Below, piece after piece: positions 11,197 to 46,534 of a DNA stretch of 64,000 nucleotides. A program made the translations under genes and the position numbers. Every line of letters starts with the position of its first letter. The first letter of the stretch is position 1. Below the pieces are notes generated by a model. The model worked only from the letters and a program-made list of their open reading frames with translations, was not told the DNA's origin and made no database searches. Origin of the DNA: Escherichia phage A221; sequence record ON862890.1; one strand, written 5' to 3'.

Positions 11197-13479
11197 ATGA
11201 TTAACGTTATAAAACGTGACGGATCTTCTGTCCCATTTGATATTGAGAAACTACACGCAGTCGTAGACCGCGCCTGTGATGGCCTGTCTGGTGTGTCAAT
11301 GTCAGAGGTGATCGCTGCATCGAAGATTCAGTTCACCGACAACATGAGAACAGATCGCATTCAGGATATCCTCATCCAGGCTGCGGCTTCACTGATCTCT
11401 GTAGACAAACCCAATTACCAGTATGTGGCTGCTCGTCTGAAGTCGTATGATCTGCGCAAGGCTGTCTATGGCCAGTACAAGCCGCCTCACCTGCTGGATA
11501 TCTTCGTCAAGAACATCAAACAGCGCGTGTATGATCGTGAGTTCCTTGATCTCTACACGACCGAAGAGTTCAACGAGCTGAACGATGTCATCAACCACAA
11601 ACGCGATAAGAACTTCACGTGGGCGGCCATGGGCCAGCTGACAGAGAAGTATCTGCTGCGCGACCGTTCCAAGAAAGACAGCAAGATCTACTACGAAACC
11701 CCTCAGGTCATGTACATGGGCATCTCCATGGCGTTGTTCTCTAACTGGGACAAAGACAGCCGCCTGGAGATGGTGAAAAAGTTCTATGAATATGCCAGCA
11801 CAGGCAAGTTCAGTCTTCCCACCCCGATTATGGCAGGTGTTCGTACTCCTACCCGTCAGTTTAGTTCCTGTGTGTTAATCAAGACTGATGACACCCTGAA
11901 CTCTATCAACGCAACAGCCAAGACCATCGTTGACTATGTGTCCAAACGTGCGGGTATCGGCTTCGACGTCGGGGCAATCCGTGGGATTGGTAGTCCTATT
12001 CGCGGTGGAGAGATGGTTCACACAGGCCTGATCCCGTTCATCAAGTATCTCACTGGGGCACTCAAATCGTGCTCTCAGGGCGGCATTCGTGGTGGTGCAG
12101 CAACAGCGTACATCCCTCTGTGGCATTACCAGTTCGATGACGTCGTTGTTCTGAAGAACAACCGTGGTACTGAAGAAAACCGCGAACGCCGTATCGACTA
12201 TGGCATTCAGATCAACCGCGTGATGTTTGAGCGCCTTGTTGCCAAGCAGCCTCTGTATCTGTTCGACCCGAAAGACAACCGCGAAATGTATGAAGCATAC
12301 TTCGCTGACGTTGACAAGTTCCGTACTCTGTATGAGAACATGATCAAGGCCGCTGATGCTGGTTTGGTTCGTGCTAAAAAGTTGCAGGCAGAAGAGGTGT
12401 TCCAGATGCTGTTGGACCAGCGTTCAGACACAGGCCGCATCTACATCGCGTTTGTCGATCACATGAATGAATATAGTCCATTCAACCTAGACACGATTTA
12501 TTCTTCAAATCTTTGTTTAGAAATCGCCCTACCGACCCGTGAGTTTGAGCAGTACAACGATGAAAACGGGCGCGTGGCTCTGTGCACCCTGGCTTCCTTC
12601 AACCTGACGGCGTTCGAAGATCCTACGGAAATGGAAGACGTGGCGTTCGTGTTGGTGTCTGCGCTGGACATGCTGTTGGAATATCAGGACTATCCAGCGA
12701 TTCAGGCTCGTAAAGCTGTTGAAGACTATCGTCCTCTGGGTGTTGGTATCGTGAACGTGGCTCACTTCTTGGCCAAGAACTTCACGGGCTATGGCTCACC
12801 AGCTGGTCTTGAAATGCTGGATGCGTGGATGGCACACCTGCACTTCTATCTGGTCAAGGCGTCCAACCGTCTGGCTATGAAGTTCGGGGCGTGTAAACGC
12901 AGAACCATCCATAATAATGGGCAGGTCACCGCCGACCTTCAGCCGCTTCCACTTGATATCCTACCAAATGGCAAGAAGCCAGAAGGGATGGCATACGGGC
13001 TGGATTGGGATGGGTTGAAGGATAATCTGAAGACCTATGGTATCCGCAACGCCACCCTGCTGGCAGTAGCCCCTACCGAAAGCTCCTCACAGGTCCTCAA
13101 CGCAACGAACGGCATTGAGCCACCGAAGGGCTTGGTGAGCATCAAGGGTAGCAAGGACGGCACTTATAAGCAGGTCGTCCCGGACGTTGAGACCCTTGGA
13201 CCGATGTATGACCTCAAGTGGGACCTGGACTGTATTGAGTACCTGAAGACCGCTGCTGTCATCCAGCGCTGGGTTGACCAGTCCATCAGTACCAACACGT
13301 GGTATGACCCAGAGAAGTACCCTGACAGCAAGATCCCTCGCGCCAAGATGATGCAAGATATCCTGTCGTTCTATATGTGGGGTGGCAAGACTCTGTATTA
13401 CAACACAAACAAGGACGCCAAGGAAGACGAAGAGCTGAAGCAGGCTGAGGAAACTCAGTGCGATAGTTGTGTTGTATAA
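11197..13479 (+). CDS. nrdA: ribonucleotide reductase class Ia large subunit
   Basis: 760 aa; N-terminal MINVIKRDGS...FD similar to T4 NrdA MQLINVIKSSG; C-terminal redox-active Cys pair CDSC in tail. Confidence 0.9.
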   Translation: MINVIKRDGSSVPFDIEKLHAVVDRACDGLSGVSMSEVIAASKIQFTDNMRTDRIQDILIQAAASLISVDKPNYQYVAARLKSYDLRKAVYGQYKPPHLLDIFVKNIKQRVYDREFLDLYTTEEFNELNDVINHKRDKNFTWAAMGQLTEKYLLRDRSKKDSKIYYETPQVMYMGISMALFSNWDKDSRLEMVKKFYEYASTGKFSLPTPIMAGVRTPTRQFSSCVLIKTDDTLNSINATAKTIVDYVSKRAGIGFDVGAIRGIGSPIRGGEMVHTGLIPFIKYLTGALKSCSQGGIRGGAATAYIPLWHYQFDDVVVLKNNRGTEENRERRIDYGIQINRVMFERLVAKQPLYLFDPKDNREMYEAYFADVDKFRTLYENMIKAADAGLVRAKKLQAEEVFQMLLDQRSDTGRIYIAFVDHMNEYSPFNLDTIYSSNLCLEIALPTREFEQYNDENGRVALCTLASFNLTAFEDPTEMEDVAFVLVSALDMLLEYQDYPAIQARKAVEDYRPLGVGIVNVAHFLAKNFTGYGSPAGLEMLDAWMAHLHFYLVKASNRLAMKFGACKRRTIHNNGQVTADLQPLPLDILPNGKKPEGMAYGLDWDGLKDNLKTYGIRNATLLAVAPTESSSQVLNATNGIEPPKGLVSIKGSKDGTYKQVVPDVETLGPMYDLKWDLDCIEYLKTAAVIQRWVDQSISTNTWYDPEKYPDSKIPRAKMMQDILSFYMWGGKTLYYNTNKDAKEDEELKQAEETQCDSCVV

Positions 13480-13510
13480 ATTGGTCTAAACATACTACCG
13501 TTATATCATC

Positions 13511-13535
13511 AGGGGTGAGAGATCACCCCTTATTA
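13511..13535 (+). terminator. terminator-like hairpin
   Basis: Hairpin AGGGGTGA-GAGA-TCACCCCT followed by TATTAATC. Confidence 0.5.
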
Positions 13536-13549
13536 ATCAGGAAAGAAAC

Positions 13550-14653
13550 ATGAGCGAACAGAAACAATTCTCCGTATTCGACCCAAGCTCGGACAACACT
13601 GGTCTACCGTTCTTCGGTGACCCAGTGAGCATTCAGCGTTACGATGTCGTGGCCTGGCCATTCGTACAGAAGTGGTATGAGAAAGGTCTCAGTCAGTTCT
13701 GGCGTCCTGAAGAGGTGGACATCACCAAGGACAAGGCAGACTTTGCTACCCTGAACGAAGCCGAGAAGCATGTCTACTTCAGCAACCTGAAGCGCCAGAC
13801 CATGCTGGACTCTATCCAGGGTGCGGCTCCGTTCGAGGCGTTTGGTCCATGGGCGTCTACCCCTGAAATGCAGTTTGCTGTCCTTGAATGGACGCGCCAG
13901 GAAGCCATTCACTCTTTATCGTACACCCACATTTTGCGCAACACTGTGAACGATCCAGGTATCGTGTTTGACCACGTACTGGATGTTGCAGAGATCGTGG
14001 ACTGTGCTCACCAGATCAGTGTGTACTACGATGACATGGTACAGTACAGTGGCATGCGTATGGCTGGACGCATCTTCACCCGAGAAGATCTGATGAATGC
14101 CAAACGCGCATTCTGGCGTGCTCTGTTTGCTGCCAACACACTGGAAGGCATCCGCTTCTACGTGTCCTTTGCATGCTCTTGGGCATTCACACAGTTTCAG
14201 AAGAAGATGGAAGGCAATGCCAAAATCATTCGACAGATCGCCCGTGATGAGCAGGATCACCTGATCCTGACCCAGACGCTGCTAAACCGCCTGCCTGGTA
14301 TGGACCCCGACTTTGCAATCATCCGTGAGGAACTGCGTGGTGAGATGACCCAGATGTTCCTGGACGTGGTCCATCAGGAGAAGGAGTGGGCGAACTACCT
14401 ATTCAAAGACGGTTCCATCCTGGGGCTGAACGCCAAGATCCTTCATCAGATGGTAGACTGGCTGGCAACCCACCGGATGGGCGCTATCGGGCATCCATAT
14501 CCCGGTGAACCTCGCAAGGAGAACCCAGTCCCATGGATTAATGACTGGCTAGATAATAAGGCAATGCAGTACGCGTTGCAGGAAGCGGAAGCTCCTGATT
14601 ATCTGATGGGTGTACTGACTGGTTCGGTATCCGATGGCCTCAAATTCGCTTAA
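13550..14653 (+). CDS. nrdB: ribonucleotide reductase class Ia small subunit
   Basis: 367 aa immediately downstream of nrdA; ferritin-like helical protein of expected size with C-terminal aromatic tail. Confidence 0.8.
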   Translation: MSEQKQFSVFDPSSDNTGLPFFGDPVSIQRYDVVAWPFVQKWYEKGLSQFWRPEEVDITKDKADFATLNEAEKHVYFSNLKRQTMLDSIQGAAPFEAFGPWASTPEMQFAVLEWTRQEAIHSLSYTHILRNTVNDPGIVFDHVLDVAEIVDCAHQISVYYDDMVQYSGMRMAGRIFTREDLMNAKRAFWRALFAANTLEGIRFYVSFACSWAFTQFQKKMEGNAKIIRQIARDEQDHLILTQTLLNRLPGMDPDFAIIREELRGEMTQMFLDVVHQEKEWANYLFKDGSILGLNAKILHQMVDWLATHRMGAIGHPYPGEPRKENPVPWINDWLDNKAMQYALQEAEAPDYLMGVLTGSVSDGLKFA

Positions 14654-24043: not shown

Positions 24044-24748
24044 ATGGCAAAGAATGCAGCTGGCGAAGAAGATCCGTTGCTGTTTCCGGCCGAGATGGAC
24101 GCCCCCGAGCTGGTCAAGCGTTACATCCGCAAGTACCGTCAACACTTCGGTCCAGAGGCGAAGCGTAACATCCGCCGTTCGCATGTGTGGTTCATGGAGC
24201 GTGTGTCTAAGGACGCCAACCTGAGTCCCAACCATATGAAACAGGCGTTTGCTGATCACAAACGTCCGGTACAAGGTGTGCGGTATATAGTCGGGCGTAT
24301 GTTCTATTTCAAATATGATGCTCTGACGAAGAATGAACTACCCTACTGGGATATGTACCCTCTGGTGTTCTTCTTCAACTTTGTCAAGGGTGATGGTATC
24401 ACCTTTGGAGAGAAGGGTGTGACATACCTCTGGGGGCTCAACATGCACTACCTGCCACCGAAGCTCAGGCTGTTGGTGTTTGAGGATCTGATCAAGTTGC
24501 GTAACGAACGGGCATACCGCTCAAAGACGCGTCTGAAGCTCACCTGGGAAGCCCTGAAGCGCTTCGCCAACCATCCGCTGTACAATCACTGTGTGAAGCT
24601 GTACCGCGCCGATCAGTTCCGTTCACAGCTTTACGAGATTGAGCCACAGTACTGGGAGATCGTTCTCTTCATGCGCACTGCCCGCTTCCAGAAACAGAGC
24701 CAGATGTCTGTGTGGAAAGATGCACGTCGTATGCATAAGAAGAAATAG
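24044..24748 (+). CDS. hypothetical protein (234 aa)
   Basis: RBS TAGGAG; basic C-terminus; no recognisable motif. Confidence 0.5.
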   Translation: MAKNAAGEEDPLLFPAEMDAPELVKRYIRKYRQHFGPEAKRNIRRSHVWFMERVSKDANLSPNHMKQAFADHKRPVQGVRYIVGRMFYFKYDALTKNELPYWDMYPLVFFFNFVKGDGITFGEKGVTYLWGLNMHYLPPKLRLLVFEDLIKLRNERAYRSKTRLKLTWEALKRFANHPLYNHCVKLYRADQFRSQLYEIEPQYWEIVLFMRTARFQKQSQMSVWKDARRMHKKK

Positions 24749-24810
24749 TTCTATAACCCGTTCCGAGGGATAATTCGTGAACAGGTAATCCTAAATGATG
24801 AGGCTATAAC

Positions 24811-25560
24811 ATGTCACAAATTTATCGTATGTTCGGGTTAGAGTTTACCCCAGCTCGCCTTGATATGAAACTCCCAAATTTTGAAAAGAGTGGATTCGAA
24901 GTCGGTTGTGTTCTGGGTTTCGATCGAAACGGCAGATCCGTTCGTGAACAAAATATTTTCGATGTTCTGGGTGTGAAACCGGACAGTGAAACAGCAATCC
25001 GCTTCGAAGAGGACATCCGTTTTGGTCATTCCGACCTGTACGATTATGTCCGTGATGTGATCGCTGGTTATGAACACGCTAAAGCACACATGAAGATGGC
25101 CACCGATGCATGCCTGAAACTGGCGCATTGTCTATACTTCTTTGGTCGCAAGCGTCAGAATCTCGATATGGTATTCCCATCAGAACTGCTTGAACGCTTC
25201 TCTGAAACCGAATTTCTACTGAAGCAAGCCGACGGAGTTGCTGTCAAATCTAGTGAAGTATTCAAATACCCGATAAATCTGGTTTCTGGACATCTGCTGG
25301 TAGGGCGTGATCAGGTCGACCTGGCGATTCATCCGGATATGGAGTATGATCAGAACTCCTGTCGTGCCATCCACAACTACGTAGGTGTCATTCTAGAAAA
25401 CTTGTACTCAGCCATGGAAGAAGTGATGGCAGCAGAACAACAGGAAGAAGTGATTCGTCGTATCCGCGAAGATATCGAAGGGAAGGTGAAACAGGATGTT
25501 CTAGGGGAATATCCACCAGAGTATTTCCCTGAAGTTCCAAACTTCTACTTGTCCAAATAA
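24811..25560 (+). CDS. hypothetical protein (249 aa)
   Basis: RBS GAGG; no recognisable motif. Confidence 0.5.
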   Translation: MSQIYRMFGLEFTPARLDMKLPNFEKSGFEVGCVLGFDRNGRSVREQNIFDVLGVKPDSETAIRFEEDIRFGHSDLYDYVRDVIAGYEHAKAHMKMATDACLKLAHCLYFFGRKRQNLDMVFPSELLERFSETEFLLKQADGVAVKSSEVFKYPINLVSGHLLVGRDQVDLAIHPDMEYDQNSCRAIHNYVGVILENLYSAMEEVMAAEQQEEVIRRIREDIEGKVKQDVLGEYPPEYFPEVPNFYLSK

Positions 25561-25580
25561 CTCCACTGTGAGAGGTGTGT

Positions 25581-25856
25581 ATGAAACGTTATCTGAAGCT
25601 GACGACTGTCCTTGAGTCGATCATAGAGTATTTCATCATGCAACACCTCCGCGCCGACAACATGCATTTAGACGGTTGCCTGACGTATGACCACAAGATC
25701 ATTGTCCATTCTGTTGAAGTGGTGGATGATGATCTGATGATTGCAAATGTAGAACACTGTCTGTTTGATGAGTCGGTTGATGCGTACTGTCAACCACGGT
25801 TCGCAAAAGTCGAGCTAACAAATTGTTGGCCGCCGGAAATGGTTTTTCTATATTGA
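25581..25856 (+). CDS. hypothetical protein
   Basis: ATG with RBS GAGAGG; tool start 25575 is GTG. Confidence 0.4.
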   Translation: MKRYLKLTTVLESIIEYFIMQHLRADNMHLDGCLTYDHKIIVHSVEVVDDDLMIANVEHCLFDESVDAYCQPRFAKVELTNCWPPEMVFLY

Positions 25857-25902
25857 CGTAGAAAGTTAATATTCACGCAAGTTCGCGCTCCGCTTGGTCG
25901 CG

Positions 25903-25935
25903 CACCTTATAACACTAAGGTGTTAACTTTCTTTT
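25903..25935 (+). terminator. rho-independent terminator
   Basis: Hairpin CACCTTA-TAACAC-TAAGGTG followed by TTAACTTTCTTTTC; flanked by 9-bp inverted repeat GAAAGTTAA/TTAACTTTC. Confidence 0.45.
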
Positions 25936-25947
25936 CAATAAAAAGTA

Positions 25948-25976
25948 GTTTACATCTATGAAAATGCAGTATATTA
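25948..25976 (+). promoter_or_regulatory. sigma70-like promoter candidate TTTACA-N17-TATTAT
   Basis: Near-consensus hexamers with 17-nt spacer in a 190-nt intergenic region upstream of 26046. Confidence 0.4.
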
Positions 25977-26045
25977 TGTTCTCACTACACAGTCAGAACA
26001 ACAATATGCCGCGGATACGGTCTTAATAACGAAAGGGTTTTTATT

Positions 26046-26882
26046 ATGTCATATATTCTTCATGTGGAATCTGGAACCAAAATTGAAATTGAAGGCAAAG
26101 ACGTTGCTGCTATTCAGGCTGAAATCAAAGAAGCAGGTCTGATCATCGGAAACGTTACCCTGCGCCGTATGGTTGAAGGTGTTCTTCAGGCTGCCAACGG
26201 CTTCGAACTGATTGAAGGTCTGAGCGCCGAAGAGAAGGAAGAAACCCAGCAGGCTCTGGCGCAAGCCCAAGAGCAAGCCCAAGCTGAAGTATCCCTGAAA
26301 GTCGCTGAAACCGTTGATACTGAAGCACCGATCTCTGCCGATGCATGTGTAGCCCCAGTGTCCGACGCCCCGGTAGACGCGGTTGAAGATGCCGTCAACG
26401 CGGCGCTGGAAGAAGGCAATCAGCCGTCCGACGCGAAAATCGGTTCCTTGGCGTCTTCGATGCTGAAAGAAGCATCGAAGGGTAAGACCCTGACCCCGCA
26501 GGCAGCGCTGGTAGAGCGTAAACGCCGTCACACCAAACGTGAGGAAATGGTTGACTTGGCTCGCGCTTCTAATCACGGTCCGGTCTTGGCGGCGATTGAA
26601 GCTGGTGTTGTCCCCGGCGTGTTCCTGAGCTACGTGAACCCAGACATGCGTTGGTTCCAGTTCCCGGTCACCGAACTGGCTAACCCTGAAAACCTTCATG
26701 CTCGCACCAATACGTATGTCGACGTTGCGCCTATCGTTTCCGGTGGCTGGGGCTTCAGTCTGTACGTGAACGGCAAGTCCTTCACCAAACGTCAGAAGAT
26801 CAAAGAGTCTGATGCTGAGTCTCTGGTTAAGGCGATCAATGAATGGCTTCCACAGGCTCTGGCTGAAGCGAAAGCTGTGTAA
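26046..26882 (+). CDS. hypothetical protein (278 aa) with acidic low-complexity linker
   Basis: First gene after long intergenic region; AQAQEQAQAE repeat; no recognisable catalytic motif. Confidence 0.5.
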   Translation: MSYILHVESGTKIEIEGKDVAAIQAEIKEAGLIIGNVTLRRMVEGVLQAANGFELIEGLSAEEKEETQQALAQAQEQAQAEVSLKVAETVDTEAPISADACVAPVSDAPVDAVEDAVNAALEEGNQPSDAKIGSLASSMLKEASKGKTLTPQAALVERKRRHTKREEMVDLARASNHGPVLAAIEAGVVPGVFLSYVNPDMRWFQFPVTELANPENLHARTNTYVDVAPIVSGGWGFSLYVNGKSFTKRQKIKESDAESLVKAINEWLPQALAEAKAV

Positions 26883-26900
26883 ATTTAAGTTCAGAAACTG

Positions 26901-26927
26901 TTCAATAGATGAAGGGGTTGCTATAAT
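26901..26927 (+). promoter_or_regulatory. promoter candidate TTCAAT-N15-TATAAT inside imperfect hairpin
   Basis: GGGTTGCTATAATAGCAGC box followed by TTTTGTTT; upstream of kinase start 26958. Confidence 0.3.
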
Positions 26928-26957
26928 AGCAGCTCCTTTTGTTTATCGGAGCAGTTT

Positions 26958-27617
26958 ATGTCCTACTCCCTGAAGGGGCTGATGAAGCGCCCCGTCCACA
27001 CATTCTTTAAACCACCCGTCGTAAAGGGGATCTACCCAGCACGAGGGCAAATCTACTACGTCAAAGGCTCCAATGGTAGCGGTAAATCCACTGTGCCGTC
27101 TCAGCTGGCGGAGAGGGATCCTCAGGCGTATGTCGTGACCCATAACGGCAAGGTAATGCTGACTGTCTGTCCTTCGTTCAACGTGGTCTGTATCGGTAAA
27201 TATGACAAGTCGAAGTCCAAGGGGGTTGATTCCCTGAAGGACACTGAGCAGATGTTGTTCGCGTTGTCTATTGCTGACCAACCAGAATACTTGAAATATG
27301 ATGTGATTTTCGAAGGTATCATTCCATCAACATTATTGAGTTCTTGGATCCCCCGCCTGACACGCCCACCACGTGAATTGGTTGTGCTCTTTATGGACAC
27401 TCCCCTTGAAACGTGTATCTCCCGCGTTAAATCACGTAACGGTGGTGTGGACTTCAATGAAGGTCTGGTGGTCGAGAAGTGGGAGAGAGTTCATGACCAT
27501 CGTCAACGACATAAAGACTTGTTCCCTACGGTAGCTGCGGGTATGATGAAGTCTCACGGCCTAACGGTAGACCAGGCTGTGATGGCATTCCTCTGTCGTG
27601 ATTTTGGGAGTATCTGA
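26958..27617 (+). CDS. P-loop kinase, polynucleotide-kinase-like (candidate modified-nucleotide or DNA kinase)
   Basis: Walker A VKGSNGSGKST resembling T4 Pnk GCPGSGKST; first gene of coupled operon. Confidence 0.6.
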   Translation: MSYSLKGLMKRPVHTFFKPPVVKGIYPARGQIYYVKGSNGSGKSTVPSQLAERDPQAYVVTHNGKVMLTVCPSFNVVCIGKYDKSKSKGVDSLKDTEQMLFALSIADQPEYLKYDVIFEGIIPSTLLSSWIPRLTRPPRELVVLFMDTPLETCISRVKSRNGGVDFNEGLVVEKWERVHDHRQRHKDLFPTVAAGMMKSHGLTVDQAVMAFLCRDFGSI

Positions 27618-28663
27618 TGGAAATCAAAGCAATTAACAACAATGACATGCTGAAGCAGGCTGTCTTGGCTATCCGTGAATTCGGGATCGAATCTGATCCT
27701 GGTAATGCTGAAATAAATACTGATAGCACCCGCTTCCTTGATGGCGTGACCATAACCGTCGCCGACATCCGTGACCGCTGGCTATCCGTTGAAGGTCGTA
27801 ACTCATCGGCTATCGCTGCCATCGGCGAGACCTTCTGGGTTCTGTCCGGGCGCGATGACGTTCGCTTCCTGTCCCGCGTGTTGCCCCGCGCCGCCAACTT
27901 TTCCGACAACGGCCACACATGGCGAGCCGCTTATGGTCCGCGTCTGTACGCCCATGGCCAGCTGGATAGCGTTATCAACCGCCTGCGCAAGAACCCAAAC
28001 ACTCGCCAGGCGTACCTCACCATCTATGACCCGGCTCTAGATTCGGATGCTGGTCTGGCGAAGTTCAGCGAGAGCGGCGAAGCGAAGACCAAGGACATGG
28101 TGTGTAACTTGGCTCTGTTGTTCGCCATCGTTGAAGGTCGTCTGAACCTGACGGTCATCAATCGCTCACAGGATGTTCTTTGGGGGATGAGTTCAATTAA
28201 CTTCATTGAGTTCTCTATTCTTCAGGAAGTGATTGCTCGGGTGCTGGATGTTGATGTCGGTCAGTACAAGCTATTCTCTAATAATCTTCATTACTACAAC
28301 AATGAAGTCAGCCAGAAGCAGCTGGGCAAGATCACGAAGGACACCAAAGTAGAAGCTGGGTTCATCAACTCCATGATTCACTTCACGAACGTGACCAACC
28401 AGAACCATATCCGCAATCTGTTCACTGGTGTGCTTCATCACTGTGATATCGGCAGCCCGTGGGAAACTGTGGTCGCCCACCTGAAGGAATATGATGCTGA
28501 TCGTGGCCTGATTGTACAGATGGCGTACTGTCTGCACTGCAAACTGAACGAAAAGCTCATTAACCTGGACCTGATTCAGGATCATGGCTTGAACATCGCG
28601 CTCACCCATTCCCCGGTTGACCGCAAGATCGTTGATCCTAAGTTCCTGGAAGGTGTAGTATGA
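27617..28663 (+). CDS. thymidylate-synthase-family pyrimidine hydroxymethylase/methylase-like enzyme (348 aa)
   Basis: Motifs DMVCNLALLFAI (catalytic Cys) and INRSQDVLWGMSSIN align with T4 gp42 DFMCTNTVQYLI / NMRSNDVVFGFRND and ThyA RSxDxxLGxPFN; start overlaps upstream stop. Confidence 0.7.
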   Translation: MEIKAINNNDMLKQAVLAIREFGIESDPGNAEINTDSTRFLDGVTITVADIRDRWLSVEGRNSSAIAAIGETFWVLSGRDDVRFLSRVLPRAANFSDNGHTWRAAYGPRLYAHGQLDSVINRLRKNPNTRQAYLTIYDPALDSDAGLAKFSESGEAKTKDMVCNLALLFAIVEGRLNLTVINRSQDVLWGMSSINFIEFSILQEVIARVLDVDVGQYKLFSNNLHYYNNEVSQKQLGKITKDTKVEAGFINSMIHFTNVTNQNHIRNLFTGVLHHCDIGSPWETVVAHLKEYDADRGLIVQMAYCLHCKLNEKLINLDLIQDHGLNIALTHSPVDRKIVDPKFLEGVV

Positions 28664-29229
28664 TGTACCCAAATCTTGAATTCTTTACGGGGCGCAAACG
28701 CTCCGGTAAGGACTTCTGTTTGGAGTCCCTCATCAGCTATCACCAACTACAGGGTGATATGGACATACAGCGCCTTTCTTTCTCTGATGAACTGCGCCGT
28801 GTAGCCAACTACATCTACCCATGGCTCCCAGCGGAGGTAGAGGATGCCGTGAAGGACGTTCCTTACGTGCACCCTGATAACCCCAAGGGCTTAACTCCAC
28901 GGCAGATCTGGCTTCATCTAGGCAGCGATACGGGCTTGCGTTACGTACAACCCGATCTGTTCCTGGCATTCTTCAAGCGCTTCCAGCTTCCTCTGGTAGA
29001 GCAGAACCCCCACGTCCATTATATCGTGAGCGATCTGCGTACCCCTCAGGAATATGAATGGGCGCTGAGTACGAAATGTCCTATCACCCGTATTTCAAAG
29101 GCCGACCGTGCTGGTATCATAGAGGATGATATAGAGGCTTTCATTGACCAAATGAAAGTGGACTACGAATTCCTCAATCCATTTGATGGTTGGGAACCGT
29201 TCGTTAAATTCTACGGAGAACGTAAATGA
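28660..29229 (+). CDS. 1: deoxynucleoside monophosphate kinase (T4 gp1-like)
   Basis: N-terminal GRKRSGKD matches T4 gp1 GVKRSGKD; YIVSDLRTPQE matches YIVPDTRQDHE; 4-nt overlap with upstream gene. Confidence 0.75.
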   Translation: MMYPNLEFFTGRKRSGKDFCLESLISYHQLQGDMDIQRLSFSDELRRVANYIYPWLPAEVEDAVKDVPYVHPDNPKGLTPRQIWLHLGSDTGLRYVQPDLFLAFFKRFQLPLVEQNPHVHYIVSDLRTPQEYEWALSTKCPITRISKADRAGIIEDDIEAFIDQMKVDYEFLNPFDGWEPFVKFYGERK

Positions 29230-29780
29230 TCACAGCAGGGCATATCAAAAGCCTGCTCGAACTCCAAAAGGCCACCAACGTGGCCTACTTTGGGGAAGAG
29301 TGGAAGAATGTATGGAGTCAGAACGCAGTCATCAACTCTATCTATCGTGAGTGGGCAGAGTTCCTTGATGAAACCACCCGTGACTGGAAGGTCTATGGCA
29401 ACGACATCGGGTTTGACCATACGAACGCAGTTTATGAACTGGTGGACGTGGTACACTTCATGTTGTGCTTCATCCTTGTGGACCGCACCAAAGGTGAGAT
29501 CGAAGAAGAATTTGAAGTCCTTAGTAATCGCGAATTCACCCCATCTGCTTTGGGTGTTGTAGGGCATCGCAATGTTACGTACCGCCTTGGGCAATTCATG
29601 AACGATCCTTGCGTTGAGACTCTCATGTTCTTCCTGTCGTCTGCGTGTTCTTATATGGAGATCGACATTGAGACTTACATACTGGCACACAAACGCAAGA
29701 ACGATCGCAATCGCCTGCGTGCTGCTGGTGGCGCGGATTACGATAAGTCCGCAGAAACCCCTCTGACCCTGGAGTTCTAA
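29226..29780 (+). CDS. 56: dNTP pyrophosphatase, T4 gp56 (dCTPase/dUTPase) family
   Basis: YELVDVVHFMLCF matches T4 gp56 FELVDIFHFVLNMF; 184 aa; 4-nt overlap with upstream gene. Confidence 0.65.
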   Translation: MITAGHIKSLLELQKATNVAYFGEEWKNVWSQNAVINSIYREWAEFLDETTRDWKVYGNDIGFDHTNAVYELVDVVHFMLCFILVDRTKGEIEEEFEVLSNREFTPSALGVVGHRNVTYRLGQFMNDPCVETLMFFLSSACSYMEIDIETYILAHKRKNDRNRLRAAGGADYDKSAETPLTLEF

Positions 29781-30322
29781 TGTTTACAGTCGTCGTTTCA
29801 TATCATGCAGACAACGCGGCGAACGCATCCGCTAATTTCGCCGAGCACATCATCGGCGGCGGTCATAATGTATTCCTTACTGAATACACCAGGCCTGTTA
29901 AACCAGGCGACGGTCTTTCGGCGACTGTTACGCATAAGATCGCCAGCGAGCAACCAGAGTCTCTGTTCAGGATGATCGAAGAGTATGCCGGTGGTGGCAT
30001 CAAGATACCAGATGAACTGGTAGACGTCTATTTTGAAGGCTCGATCTATTACATCCACGCTATGCCAAAGGATGTAACCATTGAACAGATGATGTATATC
30101 CTGAATATAGCACTGAACACTGCGTGCATCAACCGCACGAACTACAACAATCTGCGCAATATGTACCTAACCGACCGGCATAATGACGCATCGTCACTTG
30201 TTGAGACAATGTCCCTGAAGAGCATCCAAGAGGCGGTTAACATTTTGTCCCAGAAGGTTATGGGTGTAGAATTATTAACGACGATCAACAATAAAGAGGA
30301 AGTGAAATGGCCAGTTCATTAA
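29780..30322 (+). CDS. hypothetical protein (180 aa)
   Basis: Start overlaps upstream stop (TAATG); no recognisable motif. Confidence 0.5.
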   Translation: MFTVVVSYHADNAANASANFAEHIIGGGHNVFLTEYTRPVKPGDGLSATVTHKIASEQPESLFRMIEEYAGGGIKIPDELVDVYFEGSIYYIHAMPKDVTIEQMMYILNIALNTACINRTNYNNLRNMYLTDRHNDASSLVETMSLKSIQEAVNILSQKVMGVELLTTINNKEEVKWPVH

Positions 30323-31392
30323 TGGACCGCATGCTGAAGGTTGCTAAGAAACACGATGACCAGGCTTCAGTGCTGTCCAAATCCGACGCTCTGGAACCGT
30401 CTATCATCTGTTCTACTGGTATTCCCCTGATCGATATCGCATGGTCTGGGCGTATTGACGGCGGTCTGATCTCCGGTATCAAGATGATGGTGGGTGATTC
30501 CCGTACCTTCAAAACGATGTTCGGTCTGGTAGACGTCAAGGCGTACATGGACAAGTTCCCTGATGCTATCTGCGTCTTTGCGGACTCAGAAAAGGGTGCC
30601 AACGCCGATTACTGGACCTCTATGGGCATTGACATGGACCGCGTCCTGTACGTACCGATCGACAACGTTGAACAGACCAAGATCCGCTTGCTGCAGATCC
30701 TACAGGAAGTCAAGAAAGGTGACCATGTTATAATCTTCATCGACTCTATCAGCCAACTTCCCTCCACCAAGGAAGTTGAAGATGCGATCAAAGGGAACGA
30801 CACTCAAGACATGACCCGCGCCCGTGCCCTTAACAGCTTCTGGCGTGTCATGACTCCCGAAATCAACAGCAAAAATCTCGTGTGTGTTTGGATCAACTCC
30901 TATTACGATGAGATCGGCAACCAATATGCCGAGCCTAACATCAAAGGCGGCAAACAGGGCTTCTTATCCTCCAACTTGATCTGGTTTATCACCCGTTCTC
31001 AGGTGAAGGAAGACAAAGATCTGCTGGGTTGGAACTTCAACATAAGCATCATGAAAGGTCGCCATGTCAAAGAGAAAGCCAAGCTCCCTGTGACGGTACT
31101 GTACAACGGTGGTATTGATCGCTGGAGCGGCCTGCTTGAGATCGCTCGTGCTCTGGGTTATGTTGATATGCCGTCTTCCGGTTGGTATGTGCGTACAGCC
31201 AAGGGTGGTTTCGATCCTGAGAAGGAAAAGAAATATCAGAAGCGTCAGATGGATGATGATTTCTGGTATCCGCTGCTGGAGAATGTCAACTTCGCCGATG
31301 ACGTGAAGAAAATGTTCGGTGTTTCTAACGGTACTGTTATGCCTGCTAACATGCTGGAGCAAATGGACCATGTTATCAACACAAGCGAATAA
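30307..31392 (+). CDS. uvsX: RecA-like recombinase UvsX
   Basis: PDAICVFADSE and TRARALNSFWRVMTP match T4 UvsX PDAVCLFYDSE and TRAKTMKSLFRIVTP; RBS GAGGAAG. Confidence 0.9.
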   Translation: MASSLMDRMLKVAKKHDDQASVLSKSDALEPSIICSTGIPLIDIAWSGRIDGGLISGIKMMVGDSRTFKTMFGLVDVKAYMDKFPDAICVFADSEKGANADYWTSMGIDMDRVLYVPIDNVEQTKIRLLQILQEVKKGDHVIIFIDSISQLPSTKEVEDAIKGNDTQDMTRARALNSFWRVMTPEINSKNLVCVWINSYYDEIGNQYAEPNIKGGKQGFLSSNLIWFITRSQVKEDKDLLGWNFNISIMKGRHVKEKAKLPVTVLYNGGIDRWSGLLEIARALGYVDMPSSGWYVRTAKGGFDPEKEKKYQKRQMDDDFWYPLLENVNFADDVKKMFGVSNGTVMPANMLEQMDHVINTSE

Positions 31393-31699
31393 CAGTGGAG
31401 GGGGAGGAGACTCCCCCAATAACTACACAATCATCGACCCTGGTGCTGATCAGCTGGCGATCATCAAGATCACTTCTGGCAAATTCCGTGGTGTTCAATT
31501 CCGGTTCGGCAAGGTGGCCATCAACGAAGTGGACTGCGAACCCCGCCTGTCTTTCGTGACTGATATATTGAAGAAACCATTGCGTCTGATGTTTGTGAAT
31601 TTGAAAGAAAATGACTTGTTCACTGAGGTGTCAGGGGATATCCTTGTAGACCTCATGCAGCGTAATGCTCAGGAATATAATAAATTTTTGGTGGGGTAA
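31370..31699 (+). CDS. hypothetical protein
   Basis: ATG inside end of uvsX with RBS GGAG; Gly-rich N-terminus; tool start 31319 is upstream in-frame. Confidence 0.35.
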   Translation: MLSTQANNSGGGGDSPNNYTIIDPGADQLAIIKITSGKFRGVQFRFGKVAINEVDCEPRLSFVTDILKKPLRLMFVNLKENDLFTEVSGDILVDLMQRNAQEYNKFLVG

Positions 31700-31706
31700 G
31701 TGGCCA

Positions 31707-33131
31707 ATGTTACTCGAATCTGTCGTGCTTTCACAGTTGATTTACAATGAAGATTACCAAAGAAAGATCCTGCCGTACCTGAAAGCCGATTATTTTGACA
31801 ACGAAGGCGAAAAGGTCATCTTTGGTCTGATTGACAGTTATACCTCAGAGTACAATGCCCGCCCGTCTGTCGAAGCACTATCTATAATTCTTGAACGGAC
31901 AAAGCTGAACGAATATGTGTTTGACCAGGCGGTATCTGCCCTGGAGAACATCAACGACAACACCTTCAATGAAGAGTGGCTGGCGAAGGAAACCGAGGCT
32001 TGGGCGCGACAAAAGGCCGTACACAACGCAATCAAGACCGCCGTTAACATCTACGGTGACGAGAAGCGCAAGGACGAGATGAACAACATCCCGACCATGT
32101 TGCAGGAAGCCCTGGCTATCCGGTTTGATTCATATCTCGGTCACATCTATTGGGAGATGGCGGCAGAGCAGTATGACCACATGAACTCCAACGAGGCCAA
32201 GATCCCGTTCGCAGTTGAGATATTCAATAAGGCGACACGTGGTGGCGTTGGTAAGAAGACACTGAACATCGTAACAGGTGCGATCAACGCAGGTAAGACC
32301 ACAACGCTGATTGACCTGACCGCAGGGTACTCGGAGCAGGGGCTGAACGTCTTTGTCTTCACCCTTGAAGTGGCCGAGAACGTCTGGCGACACCGTCTTG
32401 ATGCCCGTATCATGCGACGCGACTTTGAGTCTTTAGAGAAACTCACAAGGCACGAGTATATTGCAACGATAGAGAAGCTCCGCAGTCGCCAAGATGGTGC
32501 GCCCAAGGGTGATATCGTCATCAAGGAATATCCTTCCGGTACTGGACACACAGGTTTATTCCGCCGCGATATCCTTGAGTACATCCAGGCAACAGGTCGT
32601 GCTCCTGATGTTATCGTTATTGACTATCTTGGCGAAGCTGCTTCCTCGCGCCTGCCTGCCCACCTGATGCAGAACACGAACGTCTATTACACGTCTGTGG
32701 CTCGTGAGTTTCGTGCGCTGGGATTTGAGTTTGATGTCCCTGTATGGACTGGTATGCAGTTCAATCGTGAGAATCAGAATAGCACTGATGGCGGAATCAG
32801 CGATTTGGCAGATGCTATCGGTATTCCGAAGGTGGCCGACTTCATCATGGCATTCTATGCTCCTGACGAACTGGCGGCGGTCAAGAAAGCCCGAGCCTCA
32901 ATACTCAAGAACCGTTATGCCAACAAGCAGAAGCTGAAATCATTCCTGTTTGGTATGGACCAAGACAAACAGATCCTGTTTGACCTGGACTGGAATGAAG
33001 TTAAGAAGGACCTGACTGAGGCTGAGGCCAAATATGTCGAAAACGTACACATCAAACATGACCTCAACAAGTCCGGGGCTGCTGCCAGCGATGAGCAGAA
33101 AGCCCAAACGGTCAATAATTGGAAATTCTAG
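31707..33131 (+). CDS. 41: replicative DNA helicase (T4 gp41/DnaB-like)
   Basis: Walker A GAINAGKTT, DnaB-like C-terminal RecA fold; 474 aa vs T4 gp41 475 aa. Confidence 0.8.
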   Translation: MLLESVVLSQLIYNEDYQRKILPYLKADYFDNEGEKVIFGLIDSYTSEYNARPSVEALSIILERTKLNEYVFDQAVSALENINDNTFNEEWLAKETEAWARQKAVHNAIKTAVNIYGDEKRKDEMNNIPTMLQEALAIRFDSYLGHIYWEMAAEQYDHMNSNEAKIPFAVEIFNKATRGGVGKKTLNIVTGAINAGKTTTLIDLTAGYSEQGLNVFVFTLEVAENVWRHRLDARIMRRDFESLEKLTRHEYIATIEKLRSRQDGAPKGDIVIKEYPSGTGHTGLFRRDILEYIQATGRAPDVIVIDYLGEAASSRLPAHLMQNTNVYYTSVAREFRALGFEFDVPVWTGMQFNRENQNSTDGGISDLADAIGIPKVADFIMAFYAPDELAAVKKARASILKNRYANKQKLKSFLFGMDQDKQILFDLDWNEVKKDLTEAEAKYVENVHIKHDLNKSGAAASDEQKAQTVNNWKF

Positions 33132-38286: not shown

Positions 38287-38503
38287 CAAGAAGTACATGT
38301 ACAAGGTTCTGCTGAGCCTCGGGGTGTCACAATCTGGGCTGGCTCGTTTATTGGATTGTTCTAATGTTGTGAACTACTGGGCGAAGGGTTATCGTGTTGT
38401 CCCCCGCTCCTTCCGTCGCTTCATCCTGGTGTTACAGTTCATCAAGAAGAAAGGGCTGATGGAAGAGTTATTGCAATTTATTAAAGAAGAGGAACGCAAA
38501 TGA
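38252..38503 (+). CDS. hypothetical protein, possible HTH
   Basis: LGVSQSGLARLL helix-turn-helix-like segment; overlaps neighbours. Confidence 0.35.
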   Translation: MSLRMKELPVNDKKYMYKVLLSLGVSQSGLARLLDCSNVVNYWAKGYRVVPRSFRRFILVLQFIKKKGLMEELLQFIKEEERK

Positions 38504-39195
38504 ACTATACCCGAGCGTTGGTTTCTATCCTTGAAAGGTCTTATTCTCGCAATCTGATTGGGTATTCAGAAAGACACCATAAAGAACCCAGGAGCTTGGG
38601 AGGGACTGATACTGCGGAGAATATTGCTGTTCTAACTGCTCGGGAACATTTCATAGTTCACAAACTTTTGGCCAAGATATTCAGTACGTCTCCTGCATAC
38701 GTGAAAATCTTTTCTTTGATGAGAAATATATCAAAATCACAAACTTCACGTCAATACGAAGAGTTCGCTCTCAGAAAATGGGAAAGGGTGAAGACAGCCA
38801 ACAGTACTCCAGAGTTTAAACAAAAATGCAGTGAAAGATTCAAGGGGGTGGCGTTATCCCGTGAACACAGATCGAAAATTTCCGATTCGCTGATGGGCAG
38901 ACCCAAATCAGATTCACAACGTTCCAAATTAAAACAAATCCATTCAAAGCCTTGGGAAAGTCCAAATGCGACACATACCCGCAAATATTGGGCTTTGGCA
39001 GGAATATTCTATGATTGGTGGGTAGCCGATGGTGCCAGGTTAGGCATATGTCGAAATGTAACGATGGTCAAGGAATTGGGGGTGGATCGCGCCGAAATGA
39101 CCGCCAAAAGTTGCATACAAAGATTTCAAAAAGGATGGGTGCCGTACAATGATGAGAATTGGGTTAAGTTTTTCGAGGAAATGAAAAATGCGTGA
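38500..39195 (+). CDS. HNH homing endonuclease (intact, free-standing)
   Basis: HNH motif ERHHKEPRSLGGTDTAENIAVLTAREH; C-terminal domain homologous to 54632-54835; RBS GAGGAA. Confidence 0.8.
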   Translation: MNYTRALVSILERSYSRNLIGYSERHHKEPRSLGGTDTAENIAVLTAREHFIVHKLLAKIFSTSPAYVKIFSLMRNISKSQTSRQYEEFALRKWERVKTANSTPEFKQKCSERFKGVALSREHRSKISDSLMGRPKSDSQRSKLKQIHSKPWESPNATHTRKYWALAGIFYDWWVADGARLGICRNVTMVKELGVDRAEMTAKSCIQRFQKGWVPYNDENWVKFFEEMKNA

Positions 39196-46024: not shown

Positions 46025-46534
46025 TTATTTGTCAGGGTTCACTAAAACAGGGGTGGATACCAGTTCGCCGCTCTTCACAGAATGCTGGACTACAACAATC
46101 TGATCGACCATGCGATATACTTCAATCCCAGCAGCCAGCATTTCAATAATGCCGTCTATGATACGATATGGTCGGTCATAGAACACTTTAGCGATCTTGC
46201 CACTGTCGATAATACGACGGGTGCACTCTGGGCATGGACTATGAGTGACAAACATCACCAGGCCACAACAGTCTTCAGTGTGCTGGGGGAGTTTGCTCAG
46301 AGCATTCTCCTCGGCGTGGATAACACCCACCGATACCAGTTGACCGTCTACTTCCTTCTCACAGACATTAGGAGCGCCAGGAGCAGTCCCGTTCCAACCG
46401 ATAGACAGGGGCTGGTCAACACGCGGGTCAACGATAACACAGCCGACCTTCAGGCGCTGGGCATAGCTGGACAGAGCGTATGCATGAGCCGAGCGCATAT
46501 GCGCAAATAACATACGGGGTTTGATAGCCATCAC
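46025..46534 (-). CDS. cd: dCMP deaminase
   Basis: Zinc-binding motifs HAEENA and SPCPECTRRI match T4 Cd HAELNA / SPCPDCAKAI. Confidence 0.85.
   Translation of the reverse strand: MMAIKPRMLFAHMRSAHAYALSSYAQRLKVGCVIVDPRVDQPLSIGWNGTAPGAPNVCEKEVDGQLVSVGVIHAEENALSKLPQHTEDCCGLVMFVTHSPCPECTRRIIDSGKIAKVFYDRPYRIIDGIIEMLAAGIEVYRMVDQIVVVQHSVKSGELVSTPVLVNPDK

Follow-up and report, generated by a model that had tools for sequence, protein, structure and literature searches.

The 64,000-nucleotide (nt) stretch of Escherichia phage A221 analysed here (record ON862890.1; hereafter the window) carries a compact block of four overlapping genes at 26958-29780 on the + strand. It is very probable (roughly 0.9) that this block is a conserved module of the Ackermannviridae, which puts 5-hydroxymethyluracil in place of thymine precursors and starts its hypermodification. 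The four products are predicted to be a 5-hydroxymethyl-dU (5-hmdU) DNA kinase, a dUMP 5-hydroxymethylase of the thymidylate synthase (TS) superfamily, a deoxynucleoside monophosphate (dNMP) kinase and a pyrophosphohydrolase of the dimeric dUTPase/dCTPase family. The first-pass annotation of this DNA had proposed the same overall logic, that is, hydroxymethylation in the nucleotide pool followed by a DNA-level kinase as in thymidine-hypermodifying phages, and the identities of all four genes support it. A 5-hmdU module has already been published for this phage family (PMC5889632, PMC8989533, PMC11721090) and is ordinary for Ackermannviridae.

The four open reading frames (ORFs) lie at 26958-27617 (219 amino acids), 27617-28663 (348 amino acids), 28660-29229 (189 amino acids) and 29226-29780 (184 amino acids). 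They are joined by TGATG at 27617, with an overlap of 1 nt, and by ATGA at 28660-28663 and 29226-29229, with overlaps of 4 nt each. These coordinates and junctions are exactly those of the first-pass annotation, and all the motifs quoted there (GSNGSGKST, MVCN, RSQD...SIN, GRKRSGKD and YELVDVVHFML) were found. Start/stop overlaps are common in this genome, accounting for about 40% of the same-strand junctions counted in a 43-kb annotated relative, and thus a run of three overlaps alone is not remarkable. The reality of the four-gene unit follows instead from conservation. In Salmonella phage ViI (Vi01), all four genes recur in identical order and overlap by 1, 4 and 4 nt as in A221. The order is likewise retained in Vibrio phage K368, where the overlaps are 4, 7 and 4 nt and the proteins only 35-42% identical. 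The proposed four-gene coupled unit is therefore real, but the coupling is not confined to four genes. The chain runs on from gene 4 through TAATG at 29780 into a gene for an ACT-like protein, which overlaps uvsX (30307-31392) by 16 nt at 30307, and uvsX then overlaps a small ORF. Co-expression of the four proteins is presumably maintained by the overlaps between stop and start codons. At the nucleotide level, the module (2.8 kb) is 98.2% identical to its counterparts in Escherichia phages PC3 and PH4. Other Aglimvirinae/Agtrevirus phages, such as AV101, Ag3, SKML-39 and Dickeya Limestone-type phages, show 90-97% identity, and 249 phage records match it in total. Judging from these identities, the stretch belongs to an Agtrevirus-like phage of the Ackermannviridae.

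The first gene (26958-27617, + strand) matches the Pfam family PF18748 (HMUDK_HMUD1) with 361.6 bits (cut-off 27; E 1.1e-108). The match is end to end, residues 14-208 lying on profile positions 1-195 of 196. Its product aligns without gaps over 219 amino acids with ViI gp67 (YP_004327432), with 88% identity and 94% positives, and the Walker A sequence GSNGSGKST at residues 37-45 is identical in gp67. ViI gp67 phosphorylates 5-hmdU in DNA (PMC8989533) and is among five ViI proteins that jointly reconstitute synthesis of 5-(2-aminoethoxy)methyl-dU (5-NeOmdU) (PMC5889632, PMC8989533). Gene 1 is predicted from this homology to be a 5-hmdU DNA kinase of the 5-HMUDK family and the ortholog of gp67. 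The Walker A motif and the hydroxymethyl-pyrimidine DNA kinase logic that had been ascribed to it both stand, but its supposed likeness to polynucleotide kinase (Pnk) does not. A Pnk or RNA-repair kinase was rejected, because the Pfam search gave no Pnk family and just weak generic P-loop matches beside PF18748. Likewise, a search of PDB sequences gave no Pnk match, with marginal matches to ABC-ATPase P-loops only. The relative ZQ1 is annotated with a shorter kinase start, and the 219-residue form is favoured here since the Pfam match begins at residue 14. With regard to public annotation, orthologs of this kinase (e.g., 13204-13866 of ViI locus L002) are often mislabelled as 'terminase small subunit', both in the records and in PHROG 800. 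Other misleading labels are 'baseplate hub' and 'thymidylate kinase'; the paralog gp243 appears as 'guanylate kinase'.

The second gene (27617-28663, + strand) matches PF00303 with 57.7 bits (cut-off 24.3; E 1.4e-15) over residues 67-235 only. It reaches no further than position 219 of the 266-position profile, and the C-terminal tail that closes over folate in ThyA is absent. Family and multiple alignments gave Glu71, Cys163, Arg183, Asp186, His225 and Tyr227 as invariant active-site residues, and the key motifs are KDMVCN (Cys163) and NRSQD...SSIN (Arg183, Asp186, Asn195). Asn195 corresponds to Asn177 of E. coli ThyA in a HMMER alignment counted from Cys146, whereas MilA, a cytidylate hydroxymethylase, has Asp there. 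A multiple alignment was made of gene 2, its counterparts from ViI, Vibrio K368, Pseudomonas Ab18 and Bacillus CP-51, a fragment of MilA, T4 gp42 and E. coli ThyA (the last agrees over residues 95-218 with the PDB-chain alignment). In this column it shows Asn in gene 2, all dUMP-type enzymes and ThyA, and Asp in MilA and gp42. Asn195 is also invariant across 35 homologues. The first-pass annotation had left the modified base open as 5-hydroxymethyl-dC (5-hmdC), 5-hmdU or a further derivative, and had suggested looking at the position equivalent to ThyA Asn177 and gp42 Asp179. The residue there is of the uracil type, which retains uracil/thymine and removes cytosine.

The sugar and the chemistry can be read in a similar manner. 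In MilA, Lys133 and Ala176 specify ribose, while Arg and Ser specify deoxyribose (PMC5175136), and gene 2 carries the deoxyribose determinants Arg130 and Ser184. A hydroxymethylation signature proposed from the ternary complex of T4 dCMP hydroxymethylase (dCH) includes Asp145, at the third position ahead of the catalytic Cys, where it activates the water for hydration of the exocyclic methylene (PMC6400193). Gene 2 has Asp160 three residues before Cys163 (KDMVC), as do the proteins of ViI, K368, Ab18 and CP-51, MilA and T4 gp42, and the position is at least 90% conserved in the gene 2 family, whereas E. coli ThyA has Leu143. The call of a TS-superfamily hydroxymethylase was thus borne out, since uracil, deoxyribose and hydroxymethylase determinants are present. 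Judging from these residues, gene 2 reads as a dUMP 5-hydroxymethylase making 5-hmdUMP. Its product is 76% identical to that of ViI 'thyA'. The hydroxymethylase is nearly always labelled 'thymidylate synthase' in public records.

The length of gene 2 had been regarded as a peculiarity, since 348 amino acids contrast with the 264 of E. coli ThyA chains and the 246 of T4 gp42. The excess of about 100 residues over gp42 and ThyA is real, but it is not an oddity. In the protein, a TS core (about residues 1-236) precedes a helical domain (about residues 262-338). An AlphaFold2 model from an alignment of 35 sequences has a mean predicted local distance difference test score (pLDDT) of 92.8 and a predicted template-modelling score (pTM) of 0.93. 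Foldseek with this model against the PDB placed MilA (5jnh) first, with E 1e-18, 345 aligned columns and template-modelling (TM) scores of 0.74/0.81. Most ThyA chains aligned over about 245-260 columns, with a query-normalised TM score of about 0.53. MilA is also the top sequence match to gene 2 (E 7e-18, versus 1e-6 or weaker for E. coli ThyA). In the predicted structure, the extra ~110 residues of gene 2 superpose on the C-terminal domain of MilA. In MilA, this part is made up of five helices away from the active site, and its truncation made the protein insoluble (PMC5175136). Similarly long genes of the dUMP hydroxymethylase type are found in Ab18 (348 amino acids) and CP-51 (407 amino acids), and the wider gene 2 family in the protein database has mostly about 300-600 amino acids. 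The extra ~100 residues are thus a family trait and not a peculiarity of A221, the helical domain being common to MilA and other phage dUMP hydroxymethylases of 348-407 amino acids. Long MilA-like TS homologues with the invariant Asn and Asp-x-x-Cys also occur in bacterial genomes, namely those of Paenarthrobacter and Rhizobium rhizogenes, on contigs of as much as 4.5 Mb; metagenomes contain fusion forms of 500-600 amino acids.

Genes 3 and 4 and a dCMP deaminase fit around these two enzymes. Gene 3 (28660-29229, + strand) has the P-loop GRKRSGKD and matches phrog_139 (dNMP kinase) with E 1.2e-47; T4 gp1 matches the same PHROG with E 1.8e-65, in agreement with the T4 gp1-like kinase assigned at first pass. 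Its product is 90% identical to that of ViI Vi01_059c. By BLASTP it has little in common with T4 gp1 beyond the P-loop (GRKRSGKD versus GVKRSGKD), and phmmer against PDB sequences gave no chain at E<=1. Gene 3 is presumed, from its family, to convert 5-hmdUMP to 5-hmdUDP. Gene 4 (29226-29780, + strand) encodes an all-alpha nucleoside triphosphate pyrophosphohydrolase of the dimeric dUTPase/dCTPase family. It matches PF08761 (dUTPase_2) with 36.7 bits (cut-off 22.9) and phrog_173 with E 3e-40. T4 gp56 belongs to the same PHROG (E 5.8e-39) and has the motif ELVDxxHF in common with gene 4, so that the gp56-like pyrophosphatase of the first-pass annotation is upheld. The top match among PDB sequences is the dimeric dUTPase of C. 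jejuni (1w2y, E 1.3e-3). With 61% identity to the ViI dUTPase, gene 4 is the most diverged of the four. It is presumed by homology to be a dUTPase and possibly also a dTTPase. The dCMP deaminase which had been noted at 46025-46534 (- strand) is confirmed by phrog_174 (E 8.7e-53) and PF00383 (E 4.3e-16). A role of this enzyme in 5-hmdU phages has been described (PMC8989533), and by analogy it likely supplies dUMP to the hydroxymethylase.

Taken together, the genes suggest the following pathway. The dUTPase_2-family pyrophosphatase would convert dUTP, and possibly dTTP, to the monophosphate, and the dCMP deaminase would add dUMP. The TS-family enzyme would use Cys163 and methylene-tetrahydrofolate to place an exocyclic methylene on dUMP, which would then be hydrated by the Asp160-activated water instead of being reduced, giving 5-hmdUMP. 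The gp1-family kinase would yield 5-hmdUDP, host NDP kinase the triphosphate, and the phage polymerase would incorporate 5-hmdUTP. In the DNA, the gene 1 product would phosphorylate 5-hmdU with ATP to 5-PmdU, an activity shown for the 88%-identical ViI gp67. A serine:DNA transferase of the gp247 type and a pyridoxal phosphate (PLP)-dependent decarboxylase of the gp226 type, both encoded outside the window, would convert part of the sites to 5-NeOmdU, which would block many restriction enzymes. In ViI, the enzymes after the kinase are the serine:DNA transferase gp247, the PLP decarboxylase gp226 and a second kinase, gp243. The hydroxymethylase gene adjoins the kinase gene in A221. In ViI, gp160 maps some 49 kb off, in the direction that falls outside the window. 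PH4, the nearest relative, which is collinear with the window across the module, has a gp247 homologue (87.8% identity) at 134256-135479, about 4 kb beyond the position matching the right end of the window. A 2024 review describes the whole set of modification genes as conserved throughout the phage family (PMC11721090). In ViI and CBA120, about 40% of T is replaced by 5-NeOmdU (PMC5889632); the figure is about 16% for a recently described Ackermannviridae phage of E. coli (bioRxiv 10.64898/2026.05.19.726188). By analogy with these relatives, the end product in A221 is most likely 5-NeOmdU replacing part of T.

Several points weigh against this interpretation. The T4 dCH signature also contains Ser-x-Tyr (Ser94-x-Tyr96), which gene 2 lacks, having Ala104-Ala105-Tyr106. 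Other sequences of the dUMP hydroxymethylase type likewise have Gly or Ala, not Ser or Thr, two residues before the Tyr, and this part of the signature, defined on dCMP enzymes, may not apply to dUMP enzymes. Whether gene 2 makes the CH2OH or the CH3 product is not provable by sequence alone, nor can the substrate range of gene 4 (dUTP only, or dTTP in addition) be read from it. Besides, ViI has a second, MazG-like pyrophosphatase (Vi01_131c, 287 amino acids) beside the aGPT-Pplase1 gene gp160 (11433-13589 of ViI locus L007), and so there are two candidate enzymes for clearing dTTP/dUTP in the phage family. As for the late steps, tblastn found no homologues of ViI gp226, gp243 and gp247 within the 64-kb window, and the final adduct is accordingly drawn from relatives. 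Most thymine positions in relatives stay canonical T (PMC5889632). For A221 itself, the enzyme activities and the DNA base are predictions from sequence and from relatives.

The location of the late-step genes would leave room for the same pool chemistry with an end product unlike that of ViI, namely unmodified 5-hmdU or another adduct made by differing late enzymes. Hypermodifying phages with the same kinase/hydroxymethylase pair do make several adducts (PMC8989533), and the modified fraction varies among Ackermannviridae (40% versus 16%, as above). However, PH4, 98% identical across the module, encodes the gp247 homologue, and the reported conservation of all modification genes is family-wide, so that we regard a different end product as very improbable.

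An ordinary operon for dTMP synthesis, in which a canonical thymidylate synthase, thymidylate or other dNMP kinases and a dUTPase would lead to normal dTTP, seems just as improbable. It has the deposited labels on its side ('thymidylate synthase', 'putative thymidylate kinase' and 'dUTP diphosphatase'), as well as the PF00303 and dUTPase_2 matches and the mostly canonical virion T of relatives (PMC5889632). Asn195 and the Arg/Ser determinants also suit dUMP as substrate, as in ThyA. On the other hand, all seven NCBIfam equivalog models of ThyA scored far below their cut-offs with gene 2, the best being NF002495 with 56.6 bits against 327. The PF00303 match stops short of the ThyA C-terminal tail, Asp160 replaces Leu143, and the fold matches MilA over the full length, compared with about 245-260 columns for most ThyA chains. 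A canonical ThyA was rejected for gene 2 on the equivalog cut-offs, Asp160 and the C-terminal architecture. Moreover, a 5-hmdU DNA kinase as gene 1 would have no substrate unless the DNA holds 5-hmdU, and bases derived from 5-hmdU have been measured in relatives.

Least probable of all is a T4-like cytosine pathway with gene 2 as a dCMP hydroxymethylase and DNA containing 5-hmdC or a derivative: although the gene set resembles T4 42, 1 and 56, gene 4 falls into the PHROG of the T4 dCTPase and the top PDB relative MilA acts on cytidylate, the base-selecting Asn195 is invariant where MilA and T4 dCH have Asp (PMC5175136; a dCMP hydroxymethylase was rejected on this residue) and BLASTP found no significant pairwise similarity to T4 gp42, while a dCMP deaminase, which destroys dCMP, is encoded nearby, the kinase family of gene 1 acts on 5-hmdU and relatives carry normal dC (PMC5889632).

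Within the preferred reading of a 5-hmdU module, a more speculative and rather unlikely extension is that the four proteins form a complex, as a compact counterpart of the dNTP-synthetase complex of T4, with the MilA-like domain used for docking. Such a complex might channel 5-hmdUTP to the replication fork and deliver the kinase to nascent DNA, and its pyrophosphatase would also be a dTTPase. If so, the canonical T of virions would have to arise by post-replicative regeneration from phosphorylated 5-hmdU.

The 5' boundary of the module is marked by a hairpin. The 75-nt spacer upstream of the kinase gene contains a long hairpin at 26895-26957 (+ strand) with a folding energy of -31.6 kcal/mol (z -6.9; none of 200 shuffled sequences reached this stability). 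Its inner GC-rich stem (26911-26939) with a U-run gives a terminator-like score, and the loop holds TGCTATAAT at 26919-26927, which resembles an extended -10 element. The outer stem pairs with the Shine-Dalgarno sequence GGAG of the kinase gene (26948-26951). The inner stem and loop are conserved in ViI and CECAV_050; for the outer stem, conservation in ViI is not obvious. Terminator, promoter, translational control or some combination of these are all candidate roles for the hairpin. For example, a transcript begun downstream of the TATAAT would lose the 5' arm, which might free the Shine-Dalgarno sequence of the kinase. A scan for sigma-70 promoters over 23.9-36.5 kb was uninformative, with 17 sites versus 15.1 expected.

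The gene that follows the module (29780-30322, + strand) matches the Pfam family ACT_phage (PF24021) with E 3.5e-79. Its homologues, in 14 clusters, are of the Ackermannviridae type only, and K368 has no detectable homologue at the corresponding position. The ACT-like gene was rejected as a fifth conserved member of the module, being restricted to close Ackermannviridae with none detected at that position in K368. Its model has a mean pLDDT of 69.6, with about 100 N-terminal residues arranged as beta-alpha-beta-beta-alpha-beta and a weak match to the ACT protein 1zpv. The last ~25 residues (NILSxKVxGxELLTTINNKEEVKWPVH) are almost invariant, and the 16-nt overlap with uvsX may explain part of this conservation.

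The wider surroundings are typical of Ackermannviridae, with genes for a gp2 DNA-end protector, gp32, the large and small subunits of ribonucleotide reductase, uvsX, a DnaB-like helicase, a ligase, topoisomerase II subunits and baseplate proteins. Within 24044-33131, the succession of a TS-like gene ... uvsX, a small ORF and the replicative helicase mirrors 42 ... uvsX-40-41 of T4, and the gp2 homologue sits immediately upstream of the module, much like T4 gene 2, which is close to gene 1. This T4-like order looks like a remnant of common ancestry with T4-like phages. Elsewhere, an ORF at 38500-39195 (+ strand) matches by offset the homing endonuclease annotated in the relative CECAV_050 (31393-32088 of locus L004), just upstream of the helicase-loader gene. 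At about 47.3-48.2 kb, the ORF layout is unlike that of CECAV_050, where a 'phosphoesterase' is annotated. This is local mosaicism typical of the phage family.

Since the pathway and 5-NeOmdU were published in 2018-2021 for ViI-like phages and the module is 98% identical to sequenced phages, its discovery value is little. The practical value is in annotation, as many GenBank/RefSeq records and PHROG 800 mislabel the kinase and the hydroxymethylase. Asp160, Asn195, Arg130/Ser184 and the MilA-like C-terminal domain provide a simple rule to separate dUMP hydroxymethylases from ThyA. By analogy with relatives, users of A221 should be prepared for resistance of its DNA to many restriction enzymes and for possibly odd behaviour in sequencing or cloning.

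Among known systems, ViI is the closest, and its 5-NeOmdU pathway has been described by Lee et al. 2018 (PMC5889632) and Lee et al. 2021 (PMC8989533). In ViI too, the ACT-like gene and uvsX come next after genes Vi01_061c to 058c (gp67, 'thyA', dnk and dUTPase), whose products are 88, 76, 90 and 61% identical to those of A221 genes 1-4. ViI is a Kuttervirus, while A221 is Aglimvirinae/Agtrevirus-like, and no functional difference is apparent from their sequences. MilA, the CMP 5-hydroxymethylase of Streptomyces rimofaciens (PDB 5jnh/5b6d), resembles gene 2 in its TS core, its C-terminal helices away from the active site and the Asp three residues before the Cys. However, it has Asp186, Lys133 and Ala176 for cytosine and ribose, in contrast to Asn195, Arg130 and Ser184 of gene 2 for uracil and deoxyribose, and it serves antibiotic biosynthesis instead of DNA precursor supply.

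T4 has the enzyme families of 42, 1 and 56 in common with the module by PHROG, and also its logic, in which the canonical triphosphate is destroyed and the monophosphate is hydroxymethylated and then re-phosphorylated. In both phages a TS-like gene lies upstream of uvsX and the replicative helicase. On the other hand, the T4 enzyme acts on cytosine (Asp179), gp42 lacks the C-terminal domain, and the hydroxymethyl group is glucosylated instead of phosphorylated. Moreover, the positions of genes 56, 42 and 1 are 16.3, 25.5 and 74.6 kb, a spread of about 58 kb, so that the scattering of these homologues in T4, on which the first-pass annotation had remarked, is correct. The nearest homologues of gene 2 in non-Ackermann phages are those of hypermodifying Pseudomonas phages that encode 5-HMUDK (Ab18) and of Bacillus phage CP-51. 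In Pseudomonas phages M6, PAO1_Ab18 and PaMx11 and in Bacillus phages of the CP-51/SPO1 type, the TS-like core is 33-35% identical to that of gene 2, and the enzymes are also long, with the same Asp-x-x-Cys and Asn. The three Pseudomonas phages also encode 5-HMUDK (PMC5889632). However, the kinase and the hydroxymethylase are neither adjacent nor in one overlapping four-gene unit in these Pseudomonas and Bacillus phages, and their final adducts are 5-NedU, N-alpha-GlyT/5-NmdU or plain 5-hmdU.

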